Positions 3,313 through 63,409 of a stretch of 64,000 bases of DNA are shown here, piece by piece (positions within the stretch are counted from its first letter, which is position 1; every line of letters starts with the position of its first letter). This stretch comes from an uncultured virus (IMG/VR IMGVR_UViG_3300025647_000017). Lineage: Duplodnaviria > Heunggongvirae > Uroviricota > Caudoviricetes. Where the stretch lies: the IMG/VR virus record IMGVR_UViG_3300025647_000017. One strand, given 5' to 3'. The notes beneath the pieces were generated by a model. The model was not told where the DNA came from. It saw only the letters and a program-made list of their open reading frames with translations, and ran no database searches. The translations under genes were made by a program, and so were the position numbers.

Positions 3313-5346
3313 ATGAGGAGAAGTTTAGTGAGTGAGTATGATAGTGGTTTATTTATAGGAGAACATCATGCCTGTTTATCTACTGAGTTTCCTATTACTA
3401 AATATGGGAAGCCACGTAGATCATGTAACTCTAGTGATGGTTTAGCAGTATATGAACATACAATGACAACAGGAGAGTTATATTACGATGCTGTATGTTT
3501 CTCTTGTAAACAGGGTTTTACCAAGGAAGAAGTACATTCATCAAGTCTGACAGGTAATTTAGGTATTGATCCTTCGGTAGGTAAAGTTACCAAAGTTATG
3601 GAATTTGTCAATAAAGCCTCTAAGAAGTTACCTATTACCAGAGAAGAACGTGATATTCTATGGAATAAGACGGGTTGGGAGGCTAAAGGTTTTCGTGGGT
3701 TTACCGATGAGATATTAAAATTCTATGGGCATAGGACTGAGTTAAATGCTAATGGAGAGGTGATTGCTCAGTACTACCCTGAGACAGAAGATTACAAACT
3801 TACGGGATACAAATCATGTCATGAACCTAAACGGTTCGGTATAGGTAATGTAGGAAAAACAGGACTTAGTAGCCAATTAAGTGGTCAACATAAATTCCCA
3901 GAAGGTGGTAAATATGCCTTGATAGTAGGCGGGGAAAAAGATAAAATTGCAGCACAAATTATGCTCCGTGAATATCAGGTAAAGAAACGACAAGATGGGT
4001 ACAACCATTATAGTGTAGTTAGCCCTACAACAGGAGAACCTTCTGCTGCAAAACAATGTAGACAACAATACGACTGGTTAAACTCGCATGAAGTTATTGT
4101 GATTGGCATGGATGCAGACGAAGTGGGGTTTGAGGCAGCCTTAGAGATAGCATCAGTATTACCAAAAGAAAAGGTGCGTATTGCTACATGGAGTGGTAAA
4201 GACCCTAATAAAATGTTATTAGATGGAAGACAGGCACAATTTTTATCTGATTTCTTTGGAGCTAAACCTTTAATTGAGACAGGTGTGTATGATGCTAATA
4301 TAGACTTCATGCAAGGTGTAATTGAAGTATTAACTACCCCAAGAATACCACTACCCCCTCATATGTATAAGTTACAAGAAATGACAAAAGGCGCAGGTTT
4401 ATTTACTAGATCCATATATTCACTCATAGGTGACACGAGCGTTGGTAAATCAACTCACATTGAGAGTATGATTGATTATTGGATGTTTAATGTACCTGAC
4501 CATAAGGTAGGTATTGTAAGTTTAGAGGCTAACAAGGAAGAGTGGACAGCATCTATGTTATCTACATTTCTAACTAACAACTTGTGGTGGATTCCTGTAG
4601 ATGAAGTTAAGGATTACTTACAGCGTCCAGACATAGTTGAAAAGTGTAAATCTTTCTTCTATAATGAATATGGGGAACCACGATTCGCTATCTTAGATGA
4701 TAGGGAAAATACGGTACATTCTTTAGAAAAGAATATAGAACGCTTAGTTAAACAGTTTGGTTGTACTATTATTGTTAATGATGTACTTACAGATGTATTA
4801 AGAACAGCGTCTAACGAAGACCAAGCTGCACATTTTAATTGGCAGAGTAACTTAGTTAAAGGGGGCACAACAATCTTTAATGTACTGCATACCCGTAAAT
4901 CCCCTTCAGATAGGAAAGGTAAGCCAACTTTTCCAGATGAAATGGACACATATGGTAGTTCGATATTCGTCCAAAAGGCTGCAGGTAACTTTATTATTGC
5001 ACGTAATAAGAATGCACCAGAAGATGATATGATTGAACAAAATACAACGTATATGAAAGTAACTAAACTTCGTAAGGGTGTTACAGGTATGGCTGGTGCA
5101 TTATATTATGATGGAGAGAGTAAAGTTATTGCTGATAGAGACCAATTTTTTGCTGCCAACCCAGATAAACTACCTGTAGGATATGACCTAAGCGTTAGTA
5201 GTTTTGATAAGGCTTATTGGGAAGAAGGTGGTAGAGGTTATAACGGGGAAGGGTCTGAAGGTAGTTTTAGTGGTAATAAACAAAATAAAACTTTCACTAT
5301 CAATACAGACAATGCACCAATAGATGTAGGAGGGTTCACACTTTGA
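3313..5346 (+). CDS. Bifunctional DNA primase-helicase (T7 gp4-like)
   Basis: N-terminal Cys-rich Zn region, Toprim motifs (GGEKD, MDAD, GKDPN), Walker A GDTSVGKS, DnaB-type C-terminal half; probable start GTG at 3328 after AGGAG. Confidence 0.9.
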   Translation: MRRSLVSEYDSGLFIGEHHACLSTEFPITKYGKPRRSCNSSDGLAVYEHTMTTGELYYDAVCFSCKQGFTKEEVHSSSLTGNLGIDPSVGKVTKVMEFVNKASKKLPITREERDILWNKTGWEAKGFRGFTDEILKFYGHRTELNANGEVIAQYYPETEDYKLTGYKSCHEPKRFGIGNVGKTGLSSQLSGQHKFPEGGKYALIVGGEKDKIAAQIMLREYQVKKRQDGYNHYSVVSPTTGEPSAAKQCRQQYDWLNSHEVIVIGMDADEVGFEAALEIASVLPKEKVRIATWSGKDPNKMLLDGRQAQFLSDFFGAKPLIETGVYDANIDFMQGVIEVLTTPRIPLPPHMYKLQEMTKGAGLFTRSIYSLIGDTSVGKSTHIESMIDYWMFNVPDHKVGIVSLEANKEEWTASMLSTFLTNNLWWIPVDEVKDYLQRPDIVEKCKSFFYNEYGEPRFAILDDRENTVHSLEKNIERLVKQFGCTIIVNDVLTDVLRTASNEDQAAHFNWQSNLVKGGTTIFNVLHTRKSPSDRKGKPTFPDEMDTYGSSIFVQKAAGNFIIARNKNAPEDDMIEQNTTYMKVTKLRKGVTGMAGALYYDGESKVIADRDQFFAANPDKLPVGYDLSVSSFDKAYWEEGGRGYNGEGSEGSFSGNKQNKTFTINTDNAPIDVGGFTL

Positions 5347-8096
5347 TTTTAGATTTAGATAAATATTTACCACAACGACATTATGGAGATATTGAAGCTA
5401 AAGGTTTCTATGATGTTGTTAATACAGAAGATGACGTTTGGTGTCTATGTACTATCACAGAAGATGATCAGGTACTATTATTTCATGATTACCCTGAATA
5501 TGATAATGTAGAGGTATATGATGCTGATGATAATAAAACTTATATCATACCACCGCGTGTAGGATCTCTTATAGATGGTGCTAGGTATTGGTATAAAATT
5601 GGCAGAAGTGGTGGCAAACTCTCAGTTCACAATTGTCAGACATACGATAAACCTTTAATTGAGAAGATTTGGCCTAAGTGTATTATACCTGCATCTTGTT
5701 GGGAGGATACTTATATACAATCAAAGGTGCAATGGTTCGACAGACCTTGTCCAAAAGGTGCCAAATCCGCTCATGGCTTAAAAGCCTATGGCATTAAGTT
5801 TGGTAATAAGAAGCCAGACATAGAAGATTGGACAATCATGGATGCGTATAAACTACACCGTATCGTAGAAGACTGTAAAATACAAAAGATGACTGCCTTA
5901 TTTTTAGATAAGGAAGCAGAAACCTTTAAAACTAAGTTTGGTATGGATTTTACAAAAGCTATTAATGAAGTAGAGAAACCTTATGCAACTATTGCGTTTG
6001 AACAAGAGTTACGTGGTGCTAAGGTTGATGTAGAACATATTAATAAATGTGTAGCTTGGTTAGATATTGAAACTGAACGTTTATCTTCTTACATAGAACC
6101 ATCTTTACCACCTACCTTGAAAAATAAGACAGGACGTGTTGGTAGGAATGAGATGGCTCTTTTATTACTAGGGAGGGATGACGTAGCTGATATTATTGAC
6201 ACTTATACAGGTGAGGTAGTTAAACCTTACTACAAACCTAGTACTAATTTCCACCGTATTGAAAAGCAAAAGTATTACTCAGGGTTTCATATATCATATG
6301 GAGATAGCCCTTCTTTCAAAAAGAAGAATGAACTTACAACGTGGATAAAAGATACGCATCCTGACACTAAAAGTAAAGAATGGGATATAGGTTTTGAGGA
6401 AAAAGAGACTCCCCTCTTAAACAAGAACACTTGTGAATATTTTGGTGTAGAGGAAACAGAAACTGATATTATCTCTGGTCCACATACACGTATTGAATGG
6501 AATATAACTAAACTTACCCAACATGAGAAGGTAAAAGGTTACCTGATAAAATCTGGTATTAAGTGGGCTGAAGTATGGAACATTAAAAAGGTAGACGGTT
6601 ACCCAGCTAGAGCAGAGGAAGATACTATTATCTACTACCCACCAAAAGCCCATCCTTCTATGCAGATAACGTATGAAGTTAAAAAGGGTGAGAACTTAGT
6701 ATCATCCCCTAAATTTGGGGATAAAGAATATGAGCAACTTGGTGATGATGCAGAGATGGGTAAGGATATTGCAAAATACAACACCTATATGCATAGACGT
6801 AGGTTTTTCTCTAATGTTAAAGACCCAGAAAACAAGGGTGTATTAGCTTATGTTAGAGAAGATGGTAGGGTTCCCTGTGGTTTAGGAAACTTCCTTACAT
6901 CTACAGGCCGTAGTAACCAACGGGTTATTGTTAATTTACCCTCTGAATCAAGTCTTTATGGTAAGGAGATGCGAGAAGCTATCATTGCAGATGAAGGTAA
7001 AATTCTAGTTGGTTGTGACCAAAAAAGCTCCCAACTTAGTATTGGAGCGTTTATAGCTAACAACCAAGATTACTACAATGCTGTAGCCACAGGGGTTGAG
7101 TTTGAAAATACAGAAGATGGTTCGCAAGTTTACCTTGGGACTTCAGCCCACTGTGTTAATGCCCGTAACTTTGGTTTAGTTTCTCAAGAAGAATGGACTA
7201 AAGCTGTATCTTCTCAAGATGAGGGGTTAATACACAGTATAGCCTTAAGACGTAAGAAGTCAAAAGGTCCAAGTTTTGGCGTTAACTAATATAGCGCATC
7301 CAACCTTAAACGGGGAAAACCTTACCATTAAGTTGAAGGTAACCTGCCGTGCTAAAGTGCCTAATTGTCACTAAAGCCTAACGACTAGATGTGTATGTAG
7401 AGAAGCATCGTAGAGCCAAGTGGTGGTATTTATACCTTAAATCGAAACGGGTTGGCTATTGCTTGCTAAAGTAATAGATGATATAGTCTCAACTTCTATG
7501 GAAACATAGAGATGCAAGTGATGTTGCTGGCTCAGTATAACGAACTGGGTTGAAGATAATGTATATTTGGTTGTAGTGGTAAAAAACTAGGTTTAATGTT
7601 AGATATACCCCCACAAGAAGGTAACGAGAAAAAGAATAACTTCTTAACTCGTATGGGTCTTGATAAAGTAATTGAATATGTTAAAAGGTGTTCTCAGCAA
7701 TTCAGTTACGGAGGGGGGTTCTTTATCCCTGTCTATGGTTACTGGCTATGGTGTCGTGGTGTAAACGTAGGGGTTAACTATTTTTGTCAAGGATTAGAAG
7801 CTATTATCCAGAAAAAGGCAGTTATAGCTTTTGATAAGATAATGGAAGCCAAGGGTTATAAAACTCACACAGGTTCTGTACTTCAGGTCCATGATGAGAT
7901 CCTTATAGAGACTTTACCTGAGTTAGCTGATGAAGTTGGTAGGATAATGTGTAATTGCTACACAGAAGCTGGTTCTGATATGTTAGCTTGGTATAAGGAG
8001 AATAAATGGGCGTACCCTGCAGGTGGTGAACCTAGTATAAGTGTAGATTTTAGTGGAGGTTATGCTAAAGGTCTCAACTATTATGCGTGTCATTAG
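5343..8096 (+). CDS. polA: Family A DNA polymerase, spliced: join(5343..7282,7562..8096), 824 aa
   Basis: Exonuclease DIE motif, TGR motif, motif A (GCDQKSSQL), motif B restored by splicing (RKKSKGPSFGVIFG), motif C (VHDE). Confidence 0.93.
7283..7561 (+). mobile_element. Group I intron in polA (279 nt, no ORF)
   Basis: P1 exon GCGU with GCGC (U-G); P10 AAUAUA with exon TATATT; P3 CCAACCU/GGGUUGG; P7 GACUA/UAGUC; P9 GAAA tetraloop; terminal G at 7561; frame restored. Confidence 0.93.
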
Positions 8097-23718: not shown

Positions 23719-24284
23719 TACGTTTTCCCTGTTTCTATAGCAAGTCCAGTAAGTTTGAACCCATCAACAACCGTTTTAGTACCAGTCTTAGGGTCAGTGG
23801 TGCCAGCTAAAGATGAACCTGTACCAGCACTAGGAGATACTGTGACAGTTGTTAATGTGTCAAGGGATGCCTTCATACCAAAATCTAATTGCTGTATTGA
23901 GAGGTTGACTGCAAGGCTATCCTTACCTTCCTTCATATAGGAAAAACTTGTTATAACACAATTATCAAACGAAGGAACCATCCTATCTTCAGTACCATAC
24001 AGAGTAAATACTACCACATCATCAATAACTTGATTGACTAGAGTAATATAATCTTCTGGTGCAGGAGAGTCATTCCTCACTTTAGTTTGGTTAATTGTGC
24101 CAACTAAGTTTATACTAGGTAAATCTGGGTGGTAATGATCACTAACCTTGACACCAGACTGCAGAGTATGTTGAGCCACTGATGCTGAACGTGTAACTTC
24201 CATAGAAGATGTAACGTCCAACACCAATACAGTAGTGCCGTCCTTGGCTAGGAGGAACACTACATTTTTTAATAAACTAGCCAT
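23718..24284 (-). CDS. Tail tube initiator or Dit-like protein
   Basis: H.LQSG..VSDH motif; directly downstream of tape measure. Confidence 0.7.
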   Translation of the reverse strand: MASLLKNVVFLLAKDGTTVLVLDVTSSMEVTRSASVAQHTLQSGVKVSDHYHPDLPSINLVGTINQTKVRNDSPAPEDYITLVNQVIDDVVVFTLYGTEDRMVPSFDNCVITSFSYMKEGKDSLAVNLSIQQLDFGMKASLDTLTTVTVSPSAGTGSSLAGTTDPKTGTKTVVDGFKLTGLAIETGKT

Positions 24285-27200
24285 TAGTTTTGTACCTCCC
24301 TTATTTTAGAGTCAACCATATCTTTCACTGCACCACTATTTGAAATAGTAACACCCATCTTCTCTGCATCTGCACCAATAGTGATGTTAACTGCATTTGA
24401 ACTAGATGAACTTCCAAACCACGATGGTGATTTATTTGTTGCATCAAACCAAGTTGGTAACCCTAATCCTTGGTCTAACTTGTCAGCGAATAAGAATAGG
24501 TTTTTAAAACTATCATAGAATGGTGTGAGTGGTGAATTAGATAATGTTTTATCCATGCCAGACATGTAACCTGATCCTAGAGTAAAACCGCTGTTACCTT
24601 TTTTCTTCTCACGAGGGTCAAATAATACACCAATTTTATCTTGGTTAAATAAGTTGATTAATTCCTCACCCCAGAATGCAGCCATTTTGATACTATCTGC
24701 AATAGCTAAAGCTGCGGCTACAACAGGACTCATTCTGCCTAATAAACCTGTGAACATAGGTAAGAACCTACTCATAGTTTTTAAGCTGATAGCCCAGTAT
24801 CCAGCAAATGCTGCCATTGGTACTAAGAAGCTACTGTCACCCATTAGTTTAGTTAAGTCATCAAGTAGTACACCAACAGCTTTAAGTGTAGGAGTGACGG
24901 CTTTTAGACCTGCAGAGAGGATCTTAAACACTGAACCAATGATACGACCTAGTGATACCCATAAAGGTTTAAGGTCAACCACAGACTTTGCAGTCTCGTT
25001 AAATAGTTCAGTCAAACCTTCGGCAAATCCAGACTTAAATATCAAGTCACCAGCTTCTTGGAATGATAAACCTAAACGGTTCATTGCCACACGGTTAGAT
25101 AACATGGCTTTGTCTAAACCACCATTAGCACGAGCAGCCTCAGACATACGTTTAGCAAAGAATGGTAATACCTTTTCAGATATCAAACCACCAGTTTGCT
25201 GTAGTGCCATCATAGATGCAACTGAACCATCTAAGGTTAAACCTGCGTCTTTTGCTGCCAGAGCCATTTGTAATATGGCATTTGGTAATACTTCCCCCAT
25301 TTGGAGTTTTCATTTATATACCTAAATTTTCACTTAGGATTAGACTATATCTTAACCCTGACGGGTCTGTATTTTCGAGTAAGATTCTACCCTACATCCT
25401 ATCGGATTAGTCTTTTGAGGTTATACCCTTTTTGCGTTGGCTCTTAGATATGTATTTACCTACCCACCAAGTATAGTCTTTGCTAATATTTTCAAAAGAA
25501 CATCTATATTTTATATTATTAACAGACTTCTTGTTTATCAGATCAGGAATGTCATATAAATCACAAATAAATTTACAACCAAAACCATATTCAAGTAGGT
25601 CACATATTTGTTTTGCTATTATAACAGTCATATTATCCGTAGGTTCTGGTTGTAAATTGTAGTCTTTTGTAAACCAAGAATACAAAACTCCAGTACGTAA
25701 TTTACTTATCTTATTTTTACTTACACCAGTAATAGTGTGTATTTCTAAGGTAGATTTACCACCCTCTATAAGTTTACAGATATCTTCCATAACACTAAGG
25801 GCTAGATCCCTTTTATGGTCACTGGCATGTTCAGGCATATTATCTACATAATGTTTTGAATTCTCTTTGTAGGTTATCCATTCAAGATTGTTCACATTGC
25901 AGTTACTTTTGTCCAAGTCTTTATGATTGACTATCAACCCTTTTTGGTAGGTATCTAATAAGAATGCTTTTGCAACTAAAGTATGACAATTTCTGTACAT
26001 ATTCTTGCCGTTTACACCTCTTAAATTAACACCCCAATAACCACCATCATAAATTCTTCTACTTAGATATCTGTTACTTTTATAACTATACACATTCCCA
26101 TTTTTTATCTACTGAATAGTCTGGGAATTCTTCTATCACTTTTAGCATTATAATCTCCTTCAATGGAGATCAGGTATATTCCTAACGGATTACCTAATCT
26201 TGACACATTTTTACTTTACCAAACACATTACTGTTTGCCCTAACCTATATTACTATGGCTAGTTAGTAGTGTCAAGCTCTAAAGGCTTTCCCGTTTTAAC
26301 ACATTTTATTTAGACACATTTCTGTGAATAGAGCCAAAACTTGAGTTAAATCAATAACTTAGCTCTTCTGCTGAAACTACCCCTTTCAATTCTGTTAATA
26401 TTAGTCGTTAATTAATATATACCTTTTAGTATCTCTATATTACTATAGATGTTCAGACTATATCTTCACTATTTTACAGTGCATTACGTTTCGATACCAC
26501 TTAGTACCTACATCCTATCGGATTAGTCGTTGAGGGCCACCTAGATTATTCTAGACTCCCTGCTGATCACCCAAGTTGGGCTTCCCAGCATATATAATGT
26601 TTTACATGAGCTAAGGTTAACTCATCCTATACACCCTGTATTACTACAAGGATTAGACTATATCTTAACCTTCAACTTAATGTTAAGGTTATTTACGCTT
26701 CGAGGACAATTTATTATCACCCCCTACACTCTTACGAGTTAGTCTTTACACGTTCCTCTTATATGAGGCTTCGCTCGGTATTGTCCTACTTCCTTTTAGG
26801 AGTTTCACCGAATTCATAAATTTAATTATTCATCATATTTCTATGAAGCCAAACAATGATTTATTTGTTGCAAAGCGTTTGTCTATGGACTATATCTTAA
26901 TCCTAAAAAAGGATTCCTTATTTTCGATTAAACTGTATAATCTACACCCTAAAGGGTTAGTCTCTGAAGGTTCTTACTTTAGTAAGGTTCCCTGCTGATT
27001 GTCTCTAATGAAATATCCCAGCAATTAAAAAGGTTTTACATTTAATATTACTATTAAAAGGAGCCACAAACCATTTAGCTCTTGTACTTTCTTCTGCACT
27101 TAGCCCTAGAAGGGTTGACATTTCTGAAATTCCTACGAAAGAGGCTTTCACATCTTCCAGACTCATCTTCCCTCGTGCAGATAACATCTTGGCAAAGTTC

Positions 27201-28021
27201 TTACCACTTGATGCTAATCCTAACCCCAGTCTGTATGCTTCGTCCCTGACGAACTTGAAGTTGTCACCTGCTTCCTTGGAGTTTGTACTTACTGCCAACA
27301 TTGTATTACTTACAGATTCGAAATCCTGTCCTACTCTAGTAATACCTACACCCAACCCTGCTACAGCGAACGCTGATAACATGTTACCTGCAAACTGTTT
27401 ACTGGATGCTGACATACGTTGCATAAGGAAGTTCTGCTTGTGCATAGAACGTTCTGATTGCCTCATAACACGGAGTCTTTCCCTCTCCATAGCAATGAGT
27501 AACCTAACTTCTTTTGCAGTCCTAGCCTTAGCTACAGACTCTCTCAATGCAGCTTGAGCTAGACGTTCTTGCTCATTGGTAGCAGCTTTAAGGTTTAACC
27601 CTGATCTTCCAAAAGTTTCTTTGGCTGAACTAAGGTTGGTTACTCGTCTACTTTCCATCCTAGCTTGTCTATTTAACTCTGCTTCTCTAGCTTTAACATG
27701 AGCATTATTACTAGGTAAGCTTGTTGGTATTCCAGCTTTAGCTCTTTCTACTGCAGCTTTTTTCTCAAACTTTATGTTCTGTTTAATTGCTGCAATATGT
27801 GCTGCACTTAAATCCTTTTCTCGTTTAACTTTATTATTGTATTCTTTATTTAAATGCTTCTCACGTTCCTTATGGTGAGCATTCATCATCTTCTGATTAG
27901 AACGAGTAGAGGCTTCTTGTTTCTTACCAAAATTCCCCATCTTCTTCTCGAAGTCTTGTAACTTTTTAAGTGCGGTATCAAACCCTACCTCCACCGTATA
28001 CTTTACAATTTCCTCTGCCAT
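24284..28021 (-). CDS. Tape measure protein, spliced from 5 exons: 28021..27077, 26882..26863, 26626..26620, 26386..26361, 25310..24284 (674 aa)
   Basis: Splicing gives ...EESTRA|TNALQQM|MS|KGVVSAEEL|KLQMGEVLP..., the conserved tape-measure domain motif; total 2025 nt in frame; follows the tail chaperones. Confidence 0.92.
25311..26360 (-). mobile_element. Group I intron TMP-i4 (1050 nt) with HNH ORF in P6
   Basis: P1 GAGCU/GGCUC; P10 AGUUUU/AAAACU; extended P5; P7 GACUA/UAGUC; P9 GAAA; terminal G at 25311. Confidence 0.92.
25407..26148 (-). pseudogene. Intron-encoded NUMOD4-HNH homing endonuclease with a +1 frameshift in an A6 run
   Basis: AAGGAG RBS and ATG at 26148 give MLKVIEEFPDYSVDK; one extra A at 26101-26106 breaks continuity with NGNVYSYKS...H.LVA..F...VNHKD..K.NC..NNLEW. 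Confidence 0.75.
26387..26619 (-). mobile_element. Group I intron TMP-i3 (233 nt, no ORF)
   Basis: P1 AUGAGU/GCUCAU; P10 CCUU/AAGG; UGCUGG..UCAGCA P4; P7; P9 GUAA; begins with in-frame UAA. Confidence 0.92.
26627..26862 (-). mobile_element. Group I intron TMP-i2 (236 nt, no ORF)
   Basis: P1 CAAAU/GUUUG; P10 UCAUU/GAUGA; UUCGGUG..ACCGAG P4; P7; P2 GAAA and P9 GUAA tetraloops. Confidence 0.92.
26883..27076 (-). mobile_element. Group I intron TMP-i1 (194 nt, no ORF, no P9)
   Basis: P1 GAGCU/GGCUC; P10 GUUUGU/ACAAAC; AAUUGCUGGGA and AAUCAGCAGG core; ends AAGAUAUAGUCCAUAG. Confidence 0.88.
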
Positions 28022-56482: not shown

Positions 56483-57347
56483 TTAATTGTCTACGTTCAT
56501 TCTCACTAAAAGAATAATAAACTTCTTTAGTGTAACCGTCAAGTAAATACTGGTGGAAATCATAAAATTCTTCATCGATTTGTTTCTTGAATTCAGTAGG
56601 ATTATCAAATGCTAAATCAATACGTTTACGTCCCATGCGGAGGAAAGCTTTCTTACTCAAATAATGAGGTGACTTTAGTTTACATAACACAACTCCAGTT
56701 TTGGCACACAATATCATATAACCTTCTTTATTAGTTTCAGGTATATCTTTGAATTTCATTAACCCAACAGAAGGTCTATGACAATGTAATAAACGTGCCA
56801 TATGATCTAACACCCATTCACTGGACAATTCTCCAGAGTTGGTAGATCTAATACCAATTAAATAAGCTCCCTCATCTTCATATACAATATGTGGGTCTGA
56901 GTTATCACAAATTTCAAACATATGTGTATACCCAGTAAGCATCATATCTGTTGCTAAAGGTTCAATCCACTTACGGGCTAAGTCTGCATATTCAGAGTCA
57001 ATTGTACCAGTGGTAGAGATAATCAATCCATACTTACGTGTCATAGTAGCACACCCTAGGAAACCATTAATTTTGGTAGGTATTTCTACCATACGTTCAG
57101 GATCAATAGTAACTCCATTCTCACCAAGGTTAAATACTTTCTTAAATGGGTGTACAATAATATTATCATCTTCATCTACGACTAAGCCACGGCACTCTAG
57201 TAGACGTTCATCTAAGTGCCACAGGTTATCCCAGAATACTTTCTTAGTGTATTTTAGGATCGACAAACCTTTATATTTACCTTCAGTATAAGTTTTCTTC
57301 TTAACCAAACCTTGTTCAATTAAATCATCCACATTAAATTTAGCCAT
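56457..57347 (-). CDS. RNA ligase, T4 Rnl1-like
   Basis: ECRGL, KKVFN, KINGF (motif I), FE, EGY and KLKS..Y motifs. Confidence 0.8.
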   Translation of the reverse strand: MAKFNVDDLIEQGLVKKKTYTEGKYKGLSILKYTKKVFWDNLWHLDERLLECRGLVVDEDDNIIVHPFKKVFNLGENGVTIDPERMVEIPTKINGFLGCATMTRKYGLIISTTGTIDSEYADLARKWIEPLATDMMLTGYTHMFEICDNSDPHIVYEDEGAYLIGIRSTNSGELSSEWVLDHMARLLHCHRPSVGLMKFKDIPETNKEGYMILCAKTGVVLCKLKSPHYLSKKAFLRMGRKRIDLAFDNPTEFKKQIDEEFYDFHQYLLDGYTKEVYYSFSENERRQLIEDYFNEK

Positions 57348-57909
57348 TATTTCTTCTCCCTACAACTTCAATTTGTTTCAACTCAGATACCACATCTTCA
57401 AGGTTTAATATTTTACCGTGAGCATCCCAACCTACATCCATAGTACGACCTTCAATACCAGAAGGAGAATCATGCAAGTGTCCGTGAAGCGCTATGCTAC
57501 CATGATCACACTCGTTCCAATGCTTGATTGGGTAGTGCATCATACAAAGTTTAACACCATTAAATCTAAATTCCAAATAATCATAGAAAGGTACTCCCAT
57601 AGCTCCTAGAACCTTCCTACAATGGTTTCCAGCAACCCAAGTTATATTGCCATTAAGTTGAGATATGATTGCCTCAGTAGCTTCTCTACCTTTAAATGAG
57701 AAGTCACCTAAGCTAATAACCTCATCATCAACACCAACTATAGAGTTCCAATGCTCAATCAATGCTGCATTCATATCATCAACATTAGACCAAGGTCGAG
57801 TATCAGGACAGAATCGTAAGACCCCTGTATGGTAGAAATGTAAATCGCTGGTGATAAAGTATCTGGTGTCAGTGTTAGATGTATTAATTTTCTGTCCAAA
57901 TTTAATCAC
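57340..57909 (-). CDS. Calcineurin-like metallophosphoesterase
   Basis: SDLH, LGD, GNH, HGHLH and DVG motifs. Confidence 0.88.
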   Translation of the reverse strand: MIKFGQKINTSNTDTRYFITSDLHFYHTGVLRFCPDTRPWSNVDDMNAALIEHWNSIVGVDDEVISLGDFSFKGREATEAIISQLNGNITWVAGNHCRKVLGAMGVPFYDYLEFRFNGVKLCMMHYPIKHWNECDHGSIALHGHLHDSPSGIEGRTMDVGWDAHGKILNLEDVVSELKQIEVVGRRNNG

Positions 57910-58020: not shown

Positions 58021-59127
58021 CTACTTATTCAGTTCAGTAATATACCATGTACGTGCTTTAGTTGATAGGTATTTTCCCACTTCCTTCATTGTAAGGTTAT
58101 TACTTTCAAGGACATCACCTTCTTCTTTATTAATGTCTTTACTTACCCAACTAAGGAATGCACCAATTAACTTCTGGTCTTTACCTACCTCAGCTAAGCC
58201 TTGTTGTAGTCTATTCTCTGTGGCGGAATACTCTACAAACTCTTGAATTGAATTTAACTTTTCTACATTGACTGAAGCTACAGATTTAACTTTAGACACA
58301 GAATGTTTTTCACCTTTAGTTTTAAACCAATTACCACTGTCCCAGCAATGTTCATCACTAACTGGAGTCCATACTAACCCCTCTCCAAGGACTTGTGGTT
58401 TACCTGCGGCGCTCATTAGGTTAAGTTGTTTTGACACAGGACACTCAGCCTCACAAGCTTCAGTGTAACCTACTAGAGTGTTCTGGACAAACATAGGATT
58501 CTGGAAATCAATAGTGACCTTCTTTGTAGGAAAATCTATGATAGCGTAGAAACCGTCAGCTTGGGTATCATTATTAGTAAGCCCATAAGTTAGTTCTACT
58601 GGCAACCAACCTTGTTTCAGTGTTTGGTCAGTATCCCCAGCCTTGATACCAAAAATAAATAAAGACTTCTTAGGCAAGAACGAGATACCAACCGAACTCT
58701 GAATACCACTTCCACACCATTCACCTGAAATCTTAAGAGGGTATAACTCAACACCATTGTAAGCTTTGGCAAAAGTCTTTGCTCTTTCTATAATAGTGTA
58801 CAGAGAATCTAACCTACGAACCATTGTTTGAGCGAACTCAGCATTATCTGAAAGTAAAGTAAATCCTCCATTTTTAATATAACCTAGTAAATTATTCTTA
58901 CTATGGAACGAAATAACCCCGTCTTCATCAACTACAATACTAGCATTAGTCCCATGTAACTTCACAGTACCAATGTATTCAATAGTAGGTGCAATAGCAA
59001 GTTCATTTAAGATAACATTACCATCTGCATCAAACCCATTAAATTTAGCTTGTTGTTGAATATTCTTAACCACATTACGGAATTGACCAGTAGAGTGGAA
59101 TGAGTAGTTTGTTGGTTGTTGTGACAT
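58021..59127 (-). CDS. RNA ligase, Rnl2-like
   Basis: KLHGTN (motif I), GEW.G, EGLVW and FKTK motifs. Confidence 0.82.
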   Translation of the reverse strand: MSQQPTNYSFHSTGQFRNVVKNIQQQAKFNGFDADGNVILNELAIAPTIEYIGTVKLHGTNASIVVDEDGVISFHSKNNLLGYIKNGGFTLLSDNAEFAQTMVRRLDSLYTIIERAKTFAKAYNGVELYPLKISGEWCGSGIQSSVGISFLPKKSLFIFGIKAGDTDQTLKQGWLPVELTYGLTNNDTQADGFYAIIDFPTKKVTIDFQNPMFVQNTLVGYTEACEAECPVSKQLNLMSAAGKPQVLGEGLVWTPVSDEHCWDSGNWFKTKGEKHSVSKVKSVASVNVEKLNSIQEFVEYSATENRLQQGLAEVGKDQKLIGAFLSWVSKDINKEEGDVLESNNLTMKEVGKYLSTKARTWYITELNK

Positions 59128-59350: not shown

Positions 59351-61947
59351 TTACTTGATGCGGCTTCTGTGGGCAGCCAATGCCGTGGGGGAGGAGATTG
59401 TTGGTAGTGGGTAGGCTTTATGCAATTTAGTCTTTTGCAGAAAAGCCATACAATCGCCAGCGCAGTCAACCCAGTCATCCTTGATCGATGCTGTAGATGG
59501 ACTTCCATCAAAAGCTTCTAACTCTTTGTAGAAAGCCTCTAAAGTGGCTTTATTTTCAAAAGAACTTTCAACTATATGTACTAACCCATTCTGACATGCA
59601 GAAGAGAATATAGAGAAACGCTTTACTTTGCCACCTTTTACGTTACCAACTTCAGAACCTCTTACATGAAAACCTTCATTTGTAAGCATCTTAGCTAAGT
59701 CTTCAAACTGCGCCTTACCAGCGCCACTCTCTTTAGGCAGTAATATATAAGTATCTTCTCCATCCCATTGAGCTTGTTGCAACATCCATGTATTTCTCTC
59801 GCCAAAGCGTTTCCTAAACCTACCAACTACATCAGTTTTAGGGTCTTTTATCTCTGGGTGATAATTAGCAACTATAAAATATAGGCCGTCCTTTCTAATC
59901 ATACGTACTGATGCAGAATAATCTGGATATCTATTTTTGTCACTAGGTTCAGAATGAGCTAAATCCCATGCTCTACATGCTAAACCTCCAACTGGCTCAT
60001 TATCTACTTTGTGTAACCACTCCCTCTGGAATAGGTTACTCCCTTCTGGTCTTGCTAGCCAATTCGATTTGTTACAAAATTGTTAAATCTTGCACCTTAC
60101 GGTCTCTATGTCACCATAGAAGTTCAGACTATATCTTTACCTATTAAGGTATCTAACATTTCCACCTACTAGAAGTAAGCGTACACCATTTCTGGTTAGT
60201 CGTTGCACTACACAATTATATATTTTGCATAGCTCAGTATTGTCTCAGAGAGATATCCACTGAATTAAATAGATTTATAAAGACGGCAATTGTTCACCGT
60301 CTAGTAGTCTTGCCCTGTTAATCTTAGTCTGTGCCTTAAGTGCAGACAGATACTTCGGATTTTGTTTGATTAGGGCTGGATTCTTAACTCCTTGTTTTAT
60401 AACAAGGAGTTTGGACTATATCTTCACCTCTAAAGGTGTTCTATTTTCGAGTATAAGCACCCTACACCCTAACGGGTTAGTCTCTGAAGGTGTTAACCTA
60501 TGGTTAACGTCCCTGCTGATTGTCTTTAGTTTATAAAGAGTTCCCAGCAATTAAAAGAATTTTCACCATGAAATTACTAACATGGGCGACAATCATCTAT
60601 CGAATATATTTCCCCCAATAAAACAAAACGTCATTGGAGGGACGTACACTGTCTTATCTTCAATTGGATTATACACATAACATAGGTCTGGGTATTGCTC
60701 TGCCAATGTTTCAGGATCATCTGCGAACACTGGGGTATCATCAACTACCAAGAAATATCTTATATGCCCTAATTTACTCTCATCAAACACTCCAGTTTCA
60801 TCTAAATAATACTCTACCCATTGAAAAACCCAACTATCTGCATCTGGGTTGGTAGTGGCTAACATAAATGAATCACTGTCTGCAGCAGAACGCATACGTC
60901 CCATTAAATATAAAAACTGCGAACAAGTGAAGTGAGTTAGTTCATCGAATCCGACAAAAGAATATTGTAAACCTTGCTTGTAACCTATTGATTACTATGG
61001 ACTATATCACTGTCTACTTAGTAGACACTCTATTTTCGAGATTGTATTAATCCCTACACCCTAACGGGTTAGTCTCTGAAGGTGTTAACCTAGGGTTAAC
61101 GTCCCTGCTGATTGGTCACTACGTGACTATCCCAGCAATTAAAAGAGTTATTCGAAACACATTACTGTATTAAGCCACCAAATTTTAATGGTTACCTTCC
61201 GCGTCACTTTCATGCTCAAGGTGTGTAAATTTAAGGTTGCCTCCTTTATTACCCTCTGCACCACTGAACATGATTTCCATGTCCTTTTCTCTCACCCTTG
61301 TTCCTAGGGGTTGGTATAATTTCTTTGCCTCACTAAACAGACCACCTGCTGCTTTCAATGGAGGGGAAGTCCTACGGAACATTACCCCCTCAAAGTTGGG
61401 GTCGTTGTGAGCGTAATACCCTGCCTTCAATAAGAGTAACCTACTTTTGCCAGATCCTGCCAAACTGGACTATTATTCTTTATGTCACCATAAAGCTTAG
61501 ATCATATCTTCCACATATAAGTGGCTTTCCATTTCGAGTATAAATACCCTACACCTCTTCAGGTTGATCGTTGCACACAGTATAATTAAATACCTTCGCT
61601 CAGTATTGTCTCGTAGAGATATCCACTGAATTAGAAAAGTTGATTATCGAGGTGCCACAGGATTTACTAGCACCTCCGTAGATCATTACATCTACCTTCA
61701 TTTGCGCTGCTAACGCTTGTTTCACTACCTTACGTGGATCGTTACACCACTCTATGCATTACTGCACAAGTTGAGACTATATCTTATTACTCTATTGTTT
61801 CGAGTTCACTTGAACTCTACATCCTTTCGGATTAGTCGTTACACGTTTTTAATTCGCTAGGTATTATCCTATAAGGGACCTTCACCTAATTAAATAGATT
61901 TATAGTAGGCAAACATTACCTACTTGCGGGGATAATTCATTACTCAT
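59351..61947 (-). CDS. terL: Terminase large subunit, spliced from 6 exons: 61947..61918, 61722..61669, 61460..61188, 60976..60599, 60382..60296, 60064..59351 (511 aa)
   Basis: Splicing restores SPQVG|KQ, Walker A YGGA|AGSGKS, H|QGLQYSFVGFDELTHF Walker B, TTNP, D|NPAL, RLLDG|NW, RAWDLA, PDYSA and DDWVD; 1536 nt in frame. Confidence 0.93.
60065..60295 (-). mobile_element. Group I intron terL-i5 (231 nt, no ORF)
   Basis: P1 GACGGU/GCCGUC; P10 CAAUU/AAUUG; P7 GACUA/UAGUC; P9 GUGA; terminal G at 60065. Confidence 0.92.
60383..60598 (-). mobile_element. Group I intron terL-i4 (216 nt, no ORF)
   Basis: P1 CGAU/GUCG; P10 GAUU/AAUC; UUGCUGG..UCAGCAG core; P7; terminal G at 60383. Confidence 0.92.
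60977..61187 (-). mobile_element. Group I intron terL-i3 (211 nt, no ORF)
   Basis: P1 CCAU/GUGG; P10 UUG/CAA; begins with UAA; core nearly identical to i4; terminal G at 60977. Confidence 0.92.
61461..61668 (-). mobile_element. Group I intron terL-i2 (208 nt, no ORF), inside Walker A
   Basis: P1 GAGGUGCU/GGCACCUC; P10 UCCUGU/GCAGGA; variant P7 GAUCA/UGAUC; P9 GUGA. Confidence 0.92.
61723..61917 (-). mobile_element. Group I intron terL-i1 (195 nt, no ORF, no P2 or P8)
   Basis: P1 GUAGGU/GCCUAC; P10 UGUUU/AAACA; P3 UCUAUU/AAUAGA; P7; P9 GUAA; terminal G at 61723. Confidence 0.9.
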
Positions 61948-63409
61948 AACTGTACCTCTCTTTGTATAAATCTTCTATAAAAGATATATCTATATTATTG
62001 GAGAAGATGTCAGAGATATTAGGTAATATTACATCATCATTACTCCCGTCTATAATATCATTAACCATCTCGTATAGAGTACTATCTAGGTTGAATATTT
62101 CCGTATACCCTCCGAATTTTATATTTGATTTTACCTGTAGTGGCTTGAAGAACATTTTTAAACTACTTTCAATCCTAGCACAATCTAGATATGACATCCT
62201 TCTGTAATTGAGGAATGTAAAAACAGAGTCTAGTGGTAGGTCTTTCTTGTATGTATACTCCCTACTAGATAGGCTACTAGTAATACCTATTTTATAAACA
62301 TTATCATCTAAGGAATCCACATATCCTAGGTAAAAATACCCATACTTCTTATGGATATTAGGTATTTTCAATATAGAGGCTATAGACCACCTATTCATAC
62401 CTAACTTACCACACGTAGGGCAACCAGAGTTTTTATTCTTATCCCTGTGCATTAGAGGGGTAACATTAAACCATTCATCGTGCTGATTACACTTAAGTTT
62501 AACCTTAGTGGTATTATTTACATACTGCACTAAGGAGTAATCTAGCGCACCATTCCCATATTCCACAATAGAATCAGAGATAAATTGGTCTTTACCTAAA
62601 AACATACCTTCCCTAGAACATTTCTGACAACCTTGCCCATTTACATGGTTATTGGCTATAACAGAAAATTCACCATGCCCTTGTTCCTTGCAAAACACTT
62701 TAACATTTTCAACAGCATTGATATATTCAGTATTGGTGTAGTCGTATAAGTTATTATGTACCTCCATTGCCTCTTTAATAAAAGCTTCGTTGGTTTTTGT
62801 CATGGATATTTTACGATCTTCTTCTCCGCATGTAGGGCAACCTTGCCCTTGTATATGTGCAGACGGTCTCTGTTTAAAAGGGATGTTGTGTTTTGTACAT
62901 AAGATCTCCATCATAGTGCGACTACAAACATAGTCCTCTACGTTATACACATATTTATCTCCGTGCAATGCTTTTGCTTTAGTGATGAAGACCTCACCTT
63001 CTTTTAAAATTTTACAATTACCACACCCACCATAGGGAGTATCTCTAACAGAAGATAAAGTAGATACATAGTGTCCATGTAACATACAGAACATATCTTG
63101 TTTAGAGTGTATGGTTTGGTACTCAGGGTTATCTAATACCTCATATTTATCACCGTGAGCCTTTTCAATTAAACCCTTCTGTATTTCAAAGTTCTCTCGT
63201 CTTCGTATAGCCAATGCACAATCACCGCACCTTTGTCTTGCGTGAATATGAGAGGAAGGCATCATAGTAAACTCACCATGTATTGGGCATATAATCCTAA
63301 TACTAGTCAACATAGCTATATATGGGTCTGGGTATTCATAATAGTCACCGTGGATAGCCTTCGCTTTTTCTATGAAAGTTTTAGTATTAAATTTTTCAGC
63401 CAATAGCAA
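61940..63409 (-). CDS. Free-standing homing endonuclease: about 5 Zn-ribbon (DUF723-like) repeats plus a GIY-YIG/T5orf172-like domain
   Basis: Repeated F..KA..HG..Y.Y..Y......I.C..HG.F..P..H..G.GC..C; YFYL..YKIGIT...R and GGYTE.F; its 3' end overlaps the terL start codon. Confidence 0.8.
   Translation of the reverse strand: MLLAEKFNTKTFIEKAKAIHGDYYEYPDPYIAMLTSIRIICPIHGEFTMMPSSHIHARQRCGDCALAIRRRENFEIQKGLIEKAHGDKYEVLDNPEYQTIHSKQDMFCMLHGHYVSTLSSVRDTPYGGCGNCKILKEGEVFITKAKALHGDKYVYNVEDYVCSRTMMEILCTKHNIPFKQRPSAHIQGQGCPTCGEEDRKISMTKTNEAFIKEAMEVHNNLYDYTNTEYINAVENVKVFCKEQGHGEFSVIANNHVNGQGCQKCSREGMFLGKDQFISDSIVEYGNGALDYSLVQYVNNTTKVKLKCNQHDEWFNVTPLMHRDKNKNSGCPTCGKLGMNRWSIASILKIPNIHKKYGYFYLGYVDSLDDNVYKIGITSSLSSREYTYKKDLPLDSVFTFLNYRRMSYLDCARIESSLKMFFKPLQVKSNIKFGGYTEIFNLDSTLYEMVNDIIDGSNDDVILPNISDIFSNNIDISFIEDLYKERYSYE

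Follow-up and report, generated by a model that had tools for sequence, protein, structure and literature searches.

A phage terminase large subunit gene with five predicted short group I introns lacking open reading frames

The question raised by this locus

How a tailed phage could obtain a terminase large subunit (TerL) from a region without a continuous reading frame is the question raised by one locus in the stretch of DNA analysed here (the window), which comprises 64,000 nucleotides (nt) from an uncultured member of the Caudoviricetes (IMG/VR record IMGVR_UViG_3300025647_000017). The region lies on the minus strand at positions 61947-59351, and it falls apart into short frames when it is read unspliced. 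Joined as six predicted exons, the same strand yields one open frame of 511 codons without an internal stop. We consider, with a probability of roughly 90%, that the TerL gene is interrupted by five short group I introns without open reading frames (ORFs), which would be removed by splicing to restore a 511-residue product.

Gene model and identity of the joined product

The joined exons comprise 1536 nt in total, starting from an ATG at 61947-61945 that is preceded a few bases upstream by a ribosome-binding-like word, GAGAGG. Exon 1 (61947-61918, 30 nt; all TerL coordinates are on the minus strand) encodes MSNELSPQVG, an N-terminus that aligns with those of relatives, and exon 2 (61722-61669, 54 nt) encodes KQALAAQMKVDVMIYGGA. 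Exon 3 (61460-61188, 273 nt) extends from the AGSGKS of the Walker A motif through EGNH, and exon 4 (60976-60599, 378 nt) from the Walker B segment QGLQYSFVGFDE through GNIFD. Exon 5 (60382-60296, 87 nt) encodes NPALIKQNPKYLSALKAQTKINRARLLDG, and exon 6 (60064-59351, 714 nt including the stop) encodes the nuclease domain. An earlier sequence-only reading of the window had proposed these six exon lengths and the junction peptides PQVG/KQ, YGGA/AGSGKS, H/QGLQYSFVGFDE, IFD/NP and LLDG/NW (the slash marks the junction), and both were borne out: all five junctions lie between codons, at TerL residues 10/11, 28/29, 119/120, 245/246 and 274/275. The exon borders fit the rule that the exon ends in U and the intron in G, as well as the pairing in helix P1 described below. 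As that reading had also noted, exons 1, 2 and 5 escape notice as ORFs because they span only 10, 18 and 29 codons. Gene callers thus fragment TerL here and overlook three of the six exons, which is a warning for annotation; the annotation of the closest sequenced relative, Shewanella sp. phage 1/40 (NC_025470), divides TerL into three separate proteins and includes an HNH endonuclease gene.

Two exons were recognizable on their own in Pfam, exon 4 as Terminase_6N (E 1.1e-07) and exon 6 as Terminase_6C (E 9.2e-07), the latter having 78.9% identity with the final annotated TerL piece in phage 1/40. Pfam was used for single exons, and a local TerL profile built from 43 full-length homologues (34-71% identical) was used for the full-length test, a search that the sequence-only reading had suggested as a check. 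The profile matched the spliced product end to end, covering residues 3-508 of 511 in a single stretch (profile positions 5-504 of 507; 759.5 bits). Pairwise comparison with uninterrupted TerL proteins gave 313 identities over 505 aligned residues for Pseudaeromonas phage KLEP7, 324 over 504 for Vibrio phage PWH3a-P1 and 214 over 502 for Pseudoalteromonas phage H101, and none of these alignments contained a gap at any of the five junctions. Proteins of the Terminase_6 type (Pfam PF03237 and PF17289) have an N-terminal ATPase domain with Walker A and B motifs followed by a C-terminal RNase H-like nuclease, and this order was found in the joined product, which contains both GAAGSGKS and FVGFDE; in the KLEP7 protein, the two domains occupy residues 27-292 and 320-481. 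Judged by these sequence comparisons, the gene encodes a TerL of the Terminase_6 type, and the uncultured tailed phage to which it belongs is related to Shewanella phage 1/40.

The five inserts as group I introns

The Rfam model of group I introns (RF00028) matched all five gaps over its full length (positions 1-253), with E-values of 1.5e-18 to 3.8e-09 for the 2.7-kilobase (kb) region searched. Intron 1 (I1; 61917-61723, 195 nt) scored 48.8 bits (E 9.7e-11) and contains no ORF. Intron 2 (I2; 61668-61461, 208 nt), which lies inside Walker A, scored 43.5 bits (E 3.8e-09), and intron 3 (I3; 61187-60977, 211 nt), which opens with an in-frame TAA and sits 7 codons before the Walker B core VGFDE, scored 53.1 bits. 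Intron 4 (I4; 60598-60383, 216 nt), at IFD/NP, and intron 5 (I5; 60295-60065, 231 nt), at LLDG/NW, scored 74.9 and 69.4 bits, respectively. In all five cases, the last base of the upstream exon is T and that of the intron is G. No ORF of the size of an endonuclease was found in any of the five introns (195-231 nt), so that an intron-encoded homing endonuclease is missing from each. The frame of the upstream exon reaches a stop 1 to 23 codons into every intron; therefore, the inserts cannot be inteins, and unspliced RNA could not yield TerL.

To these matches we added an alignment of the five introns with eight introns from relatives, which was not fitted to structure. RNAalifold recovered helices P3, P4, P5, P6, P8 and P9 from these 13 sequences, and P7 was then added as a pseudoknot. 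In the core helices, 93.8% of 448 cells were paired, compared with 35-46% when the partners were slid by 1-3 columns. Changes on both sides were seen in 29 of 35 pairs, and none of 500 shuffles attained any of the five measures; because the aligned introns are related, the shuffle control overstates the significance and the slid control is the fairer one. P7 was paired in 100% of cases and is kept in I2 by a double compensatory change (GACUA/UAGUC to GAUCA/UGAUC) that is common to the I2 orthologue in phage 1/40. A 4-base-pair (bp) hairpin directly after the 5' strand of P7 also covaries in the five TerL introns of the window and their close relatives (ACCA/UGGU, ACCU/AGGU, ACCC/GGGU and AUCC/GGAU), and its position suggests a P7.1 of the kind found in subgroup IA (IA2-like). 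Taken as sequence evidence, the model matches and the covariation identify the five inserts as group I introns.

The internal guides of the introns provided a further line of evidence, for which all 1528 8-mers of the coding sequence (CDS) served as background. In I1, P1 would form from GUAGGU/GCCUAC with a U.G pair at the splice site (-9.6 kcal/mol; 0.5% of CDS 8-mers pair as well). The P1 of I2 has 8 bp (-14.9 kcal/mol) and its cognate site ranks in the best 0.07% of CDS 8-mers, and that of I5 has 7 bp (-10.5 kcal/mol) and ranks in the best 0.5%. On average, the cognate P1 energy was -8.6 kcal/mol, against -2.9 kcal/mol for the 20 non-cognate combinations of exon and guide. P1 is thus convincing for I1, I2 and I5; the other two introns are considered below.

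Splice junctions and integrity of the assembly

Relatives that are empty at the predicted sites provided evidence on the exact junctions. At the nucleotide level, the DNA of phage 1/40 reads straight through sites 1, 3 and 4, and a 4.3-kb viral contig with about 93% DNA identity (locus L006 of the survey below) reads straight through sites 3 and 4. In sequencing runs X1 and X2, a contig adjoins base 61722, the first of exon 2, with 30 letters that we read by hand as MSNELSPQIG; this contig represents an allele without intron 1, in which exon 1 is fused to exon 2. Since sites 1, 3 and 4 are empty in near relatives with exactly the predicted junction, these junctions are supported.

The introns themselves were also found in other data. 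Among the matches listed, contigs from four runs in four studies jointly bridge all ten exon-intron boundaries, and run X5 holds a strain with tens of differences that retains the introns. A contig in IMG/VR shows 100% identity across 2583 nt; it may come from the same source and was not counted as independent. Contig joints that skip 164-1679 nt, with sides of 24-44 letters, were rejected as deletions or as spliced DNA; they lie in sequence shared between introns and are treated as repeat artefacts of short contigs.

Conservation and phase of the insertion sites

The five interruptions all lie in the ATPase half of the protein, within residues 1-274 (P=0.044 by chance). The sequence-only reading had held that the introns target the most conserved sites. 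In an alignment with the 43 homologues, windows of three residues on either side of junctions 1 to 5 fell at conservation percentiles 56, 92, 82, 94 and 88, and a joint test of the five junctions against 20,000 random sets of five gave P=0.008. The claim therefore holds for four of the sites, which are in the top 18% of windows, and fails for site 1, at the putatively adenine-binding PQVG/KQ, which is average.

The same reading drew attention to the uniform phase 0 of the introns. For the five TerL introns of the window the uniformity is real: third codon positions account for 41% of the T's in the CDS, and five of five in phase 0 then has P=0.012 (0.004 under a flat 1/3), on the assumption that a splice site needs only a preceding T. 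Relatives, in contrast, carry phase 1 and phase 2 introns in TerL; across the clade, 7 of 10 distinct intron sites are in phase 0 (P=0.065, or 0.020 under a flat 1/3). Phase 0 is a bias and not a rule. It may be favoured because a splice site needs a U and the third codon base is probably the freest to be U within conserved motifs. That any exon skipping would stay in frame, as had also been proposed, is correct as arithmetic; however, we found no sign that skipping occurs or matters, the argument from phase is weak, and the skipping of exons 2-4 would lose parts of the Walker A or Walker B motifs.

Occupancy of the sites in related phages

A survey of the five sites in related phages, which the sequence-only reading had put forward as a check, covered 34 distinct TerL loci. 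From the 42 loci fetched (numbered within L001-L043), we dropped the duplicates L007 and L029 (of L001, phage 1/40), L030 (of L015) and L035 (of L006), the window-identical loci L008, L014 and L028, and the uninformative fragments L009 and L027. Occupancy was judged from the break structure of aligned segments, from inspection of the junctions and from Rfam matches. Among the 34 loci, 12 were uninterrupted over their full length, 7 were uninterrupted over the aligned part and 15 were interrupted, and for each of the five sites there were both relatives with an intron and relatives without one.

Site 1 (G10/K11) is occupied in L031 only, by an intron of 267 nt (96 bits) that is only 62% like I1, a value within the range of shuffled sequences (see below); the same site is thus filled by different introns. 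This result ruled out the idea that the same site always holds the same intron. Site 2 (A28/A29) is occupied in phage 1/40 and in L015, L026, L032 and L033. Site 3 (H119/Q120) is occupied in L023, a contig that has only the 3' part of the intron, and site 4 (D245/N246) in L016 and L020 by introns related to I4, both of which are cut by the contig end. Site 5 (G274/N275) is occupied in phage 1/40, L006 and L023; the intron of L006 is 93% identical to I5.

Relatives also carry TerL introns at sites that are empty in the window. Two of these are in phase 0, at G27/A28 in L025 and at L132/T133 in phage 1/40, L032 and L033. The others are in codon 122 (phase 1; Aeromonas phage 2L372X and L022), in codon 129 (phase 2; L006 and L020) and in codon 243 (phase 2, with an HNH gene; L023 and L024). 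Within TerL, HNH genes occur only in the introns of relatives, namely at L132/T133 in phage 1/40 and at codon 243 in L023 and L024. No relative examined has more than three TerL introns, a number that L023 reaches on a partial contig, and the five-intron TerL of the window is the most intron-rich among those examined. Overall, the TerL ATPase domain holds at least ten intron sites and one intein-like site across the 34 relatives.

Close relatives differ intron by intron: the relative with about 93% identity lacks two introns of the window and has another nine codons away, and the allele without intron 1 occurs in the same samples. As read from these sequences, the turnover of introns in the clade is rapid. 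The clade thus forms a natural series for the rate of intron gain and loss, for the mobility of ORF-less introns by reverse splicing and for the folding of several ribozymes in one transcript without cross-reaction.

Three further observations were made in relatives. The ORF-less intron in codon 129 (L006 194-434; also in L020) and the HNH-containing intron of phage 1/40 (L001 3581-4563) are inserted 10 nt apart, at CDS positions 386 and 396. Each is preceded by GCTT and has a GAGCC guide, and 110 nt of their 3' parts show 75% identity; one possible cause is a slip from one site to the similar one next to it. Within Walker A (GGSAG/C...N/SGKS), two codons from intron site 2, the TerL genes of PWH3a-P1 (L003 1735-3705), L016, L020 and L031 contain an in-frame insert of about 143 residues at G30/S31; L031 has both this insert and the site 1 intron. 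Pfam detected no intein domain in the PWH3a-P1 insert; from the in-frame position and the C...N/S borders we infer that it is mini-intein-like. The nearest record, a 24.5-kb fragment (G001), contains a single sub-threshold match to a group I intron, and H101 has a group I intron of 77.1 bits (L004 4820-5118) between annotations of a hypothetical protein and a short portal protein, so that its portal gene is probably split and mis-annotated.

Alternative explanations

Several observations count against a gene in which all five inserts splice out. We infer splicing, its efficiency and order, and the spread of the introns from DNA sequence, and among the 16 runs in 8 studies listed as containing the region there is no RNA run. 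Three of the five introns exceed the RF00028 gathering score of 50 bits, with I1 and I2 just below it, and exon 3 alone has no Pfam match at E<=0.01. The P1 of I3 is acceptable but moderate (-5.6 kcal/mol; 9% of CDS 8-mers are as good), and that of I4, with only 4 exon bp (-2.3 kcal/mol), is uninformative, since 54% of CDS 8-mers are as good, which is the chance level. The pairing in helix P10 did not separate cognate from non-cognate combinations, except for I2. In addition, some introns of Bastillevirinae phages are spliced in vivo and not in vitro, according to the available text of PMC11878797; thus, self-splicing without helpers cannot be assumed for all five introns. The sub-threshold scores, the weak pairing of I4 and these failures in vitro would fit a decaying or non-functional TerL, with at least one insert lacking ribozyme activity and the lineage being defective or dependent on a second TerL or on helper factors. 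We regard such decay as very improbable, because all exons are intact, none has a frameshift or stop, and the motifs of Walker A, Walker B and the nuclease are conserved, and because the core helices of all five introns have been kept through compensatory changes. The same architecture also recurs in at least two diverged strains and in four studies, which would be unexpected for a dead gene in a lytic phage population.

The introns might instead gate TerL production in a regulated way, for example if splicing depended on GTP or translation or if exon skipping gave in-frame isoforms, and phase 0 would then be maintained by selection. The phase bias (P about 0.012), by which every skipped product would be in frame, is compatible with this idea, as are the exon skipping documented in Twort orf142 and SIOphi TerL and the "molecular switch" idea discussed in the available text of PMC11878797. 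A gate is nevertheless unlikely, if somewhat less so than decay: the phase 1 and 2 introns in the TerL genes of relatives do not fit it, and no intron can be required, given the 93%-identical relative without introns 3 and 4 and the co-occurring allele without intron 1. Moreover, the guides of I1, I2, I3 and I5 fit their own exons far better than the others, which disfavours cross-splicing, skipping exons 2-4 would cost parts of the ATPase motifs, and the freedom of the third codon position to be U would be a simpler cause of the phase bias. We give almost no credence to an artefact, either a chimeric metagenome assembly of repeated intron copies or inteins misread as introns. The introns do share repeats, including a 41-nt exact word in I3 and I4, and short Logan contigs do break inside introns and show spurious joints. 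Against this stand the bridging of every exon-intron boundary, among the matches listed, by contigs from four runs in four studies, the identical IMG/VR contig (albeit possibly of the same source) and the isolate genome of phage 1/40, which has orthologous introns at two sites; the early stop in every insert excludes inteins.

A gene interrupted by five group I introns is therefore the explanation that we favour. The TerL gene would be transcribed into one pre-mRNA of about 2.6 kb, in which every intron would form a ribozyme core comprising P3-P9 and a P7.1 hairpin. The internal guide of each intron would pair with the last bases of the upstream exon to form P1, with a U.G pair at the splice site, and a guanosine-initiated two-step transesterification would remove the intron. 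Ligation of the exons would then give the 1536-nt frame and the 511-residue ATPase-nuclease. The introns lack homing endonucleases of their own and are best regarded as leftovers or passengers of a mobile-intron population that is quickly gained and lost in the clade.

Intron relationships and neighbouring genes

The 64-kb window contains nine group I introns: besides the five in TerL, the tape-measure gene has three and a DNA-polymerase-like gene has one. At 74-77% global identity, I3 and I4 group with the first tape-measure intron, I3 and I4 being 77% identical and having the 41-nt exact word in common, and I1, I2 and I5 form a looser group with 67-73% identity (shuffled sequences: mean 58%, maximum 68%). 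Paralogous ORF-less introns at different sites, with guides fitted to their own exons, suggest spread within the genome or gene conversion between copies, which we treat as a lead only. It is possible, if rather doubtful, that all five TerL introns arose by spread inside one genome, two lineages having been copied to new sites and their guides re-tuned, by reverse splicing or with the aid of a free-standing nuclease acting in trans. The TerL ATPase domain would then be an arena of ongoing intron gain and loss, and its pre-mRNA might be alternatively spliced in frame.

In the tape-measure gene, three back-to-back group I introns were detected at 26433-27087 (minus strand; 58.4, 82.6 and 58.9 bits). 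Their Rfam matches are 4-7 nt apart; therefore, any exons between them must be tiny. The accompanying ORFs lie at 27005-28021, 24284-25300 and 25407-26093 (minus strand), and an ORF for an HNH_3 endonuclease follows the introns. Shewanella phages 1/4 and 1/40 match across this intron region at about 83%, inside a gene annotated plainly as encoding a tape measure protein. The remaining intron, at 7219-7511 (plus strand; 45.6 bits, below the cut-off), splits the DNA-polymerase-like gene (ORFs 5343-7289 and 7596-8096).

Directly upstream of TerL, a gene at 61940-63409 (minus strand), whose stop overlaps the TerL start by 8 nt, encodes a 489-residue protein with repeated Cys-pair motifs and a C-terminal T5orf172/MUG113 domain of a GIY-YIG-like nuclease family (Pfam T5orf172, 4.3e-07; MUG113, 1.7e-06). 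Of 8 loci searched by tblastn, L015 alone has a homologue upstream of its TerL, and phage 1/40, KLEP7 and four others lack one there; in H101 and 2L372X, the genes annotated as endonucleases that precede TerL show at best weak similarity to it (best E 1e-05 over 40 residues). The protein was considered as a mobilising enzyme of the introns, an idea that was not adopted, and it is treated here as a neighbour. On the other side, TerL is directly followed by a gene for an RNA ligase family protein (58021-59127, minus strand; Pfam RNA_ligase, 1.6e-09) and then by an ORF at 57340-57909 (minus strand) that we read by eye as a putative metallophosphoesterase. In phage 1/40, a tRNA nucleotidyltransferase gene follows TerL.

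Comparison with known systems

The introns of the T4 td, nrdB and nrdD genes belong to subgroup IA2 and occur one per gene, and a homing endonuclease ORF is present in at least two of the three. The window resembles T4 in having the same class of ribozyme in a conserved gene of nucleotide or DNA metabolism of a virulent phage, where the T4 introns are self-splicing; it differs in that T4 has a single intron per gene and endonuclease ORFs, whereas the five TerL introns of the window have none. The nearest comparison is Shewanella phage 1/40, whose exons are 76-87% identical to those of the window at the DNA level. In this phage, group I introns occupy exactly site 2 (91% identity with I2) and site 5 (94% with I5) and are hence more similar than the flanking exons. 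Whereas the TerL gene of the window has five introns, that of phage 1/40 has three; it is uninterrupted at sites 1, 3 and 4, and a 983-nt intron encoding an HNH protein at L132/T133 has no counterpart in the window.

Introns in phage TerL genes are themselves known. The portion of PMC8541194 available to us describes TerL group I introns in Shewanella phages 1/4 and 1/40, and in Bastillevirinae phages the TerL gene is split by two or three group I introns and a DNA polymerase gene also has several (PMC11878797, as far as its text was available). The same portion of that work presents exon skipping as the dominant in vitro variant of SIOphi TerL and cites Twort orf142 (Landthaler and Shub 1999) as a case of three introns with exon skipping. 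These Herelleviridae genes resemble the TerL of the window in containing several neighbouring group I introns, between which exon skipping has been observed there. In contrast to the window, their phages infect Gram-positive hosts and belong to an unrelated TerL clade, and their introns average 802 nt and often contain endonuclease genes; the TerL gene of the window has five introns of 195-231 nt without an ORF, exceeding the two or three per gene described in that text. Earlier publications thus already cover phage TerL genes with several introns, exon skipping in such genes and the TerL introns of the closest relative. In the literature searched, which excluded most subscription journals, we met no account of a phage gene with five introns; at most three per gene were described, and "five introns" appeared only as a count per genome. 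Five introns in one phage gene, and nine in 64 kb, make an unusually dense case.

The choice of insertion sites has a parallel in the inteins of mycobacteriophage TerL proteins, for which the accessible part of PMC5050341 describes seven independent insertion points, all in the ATPase domain and including the P-loop/Walker A and Walker B motifs. That homing elements reside in conserved functional motifs is thus an established idea and not a new one (PMC5050341, same part). The mycobacteriophage inteins and the introns of the window follow the same target logic, the conserved motifs of the ATPase; the former are protein-splicing elements, whereas those of the window would act as RNA introns.

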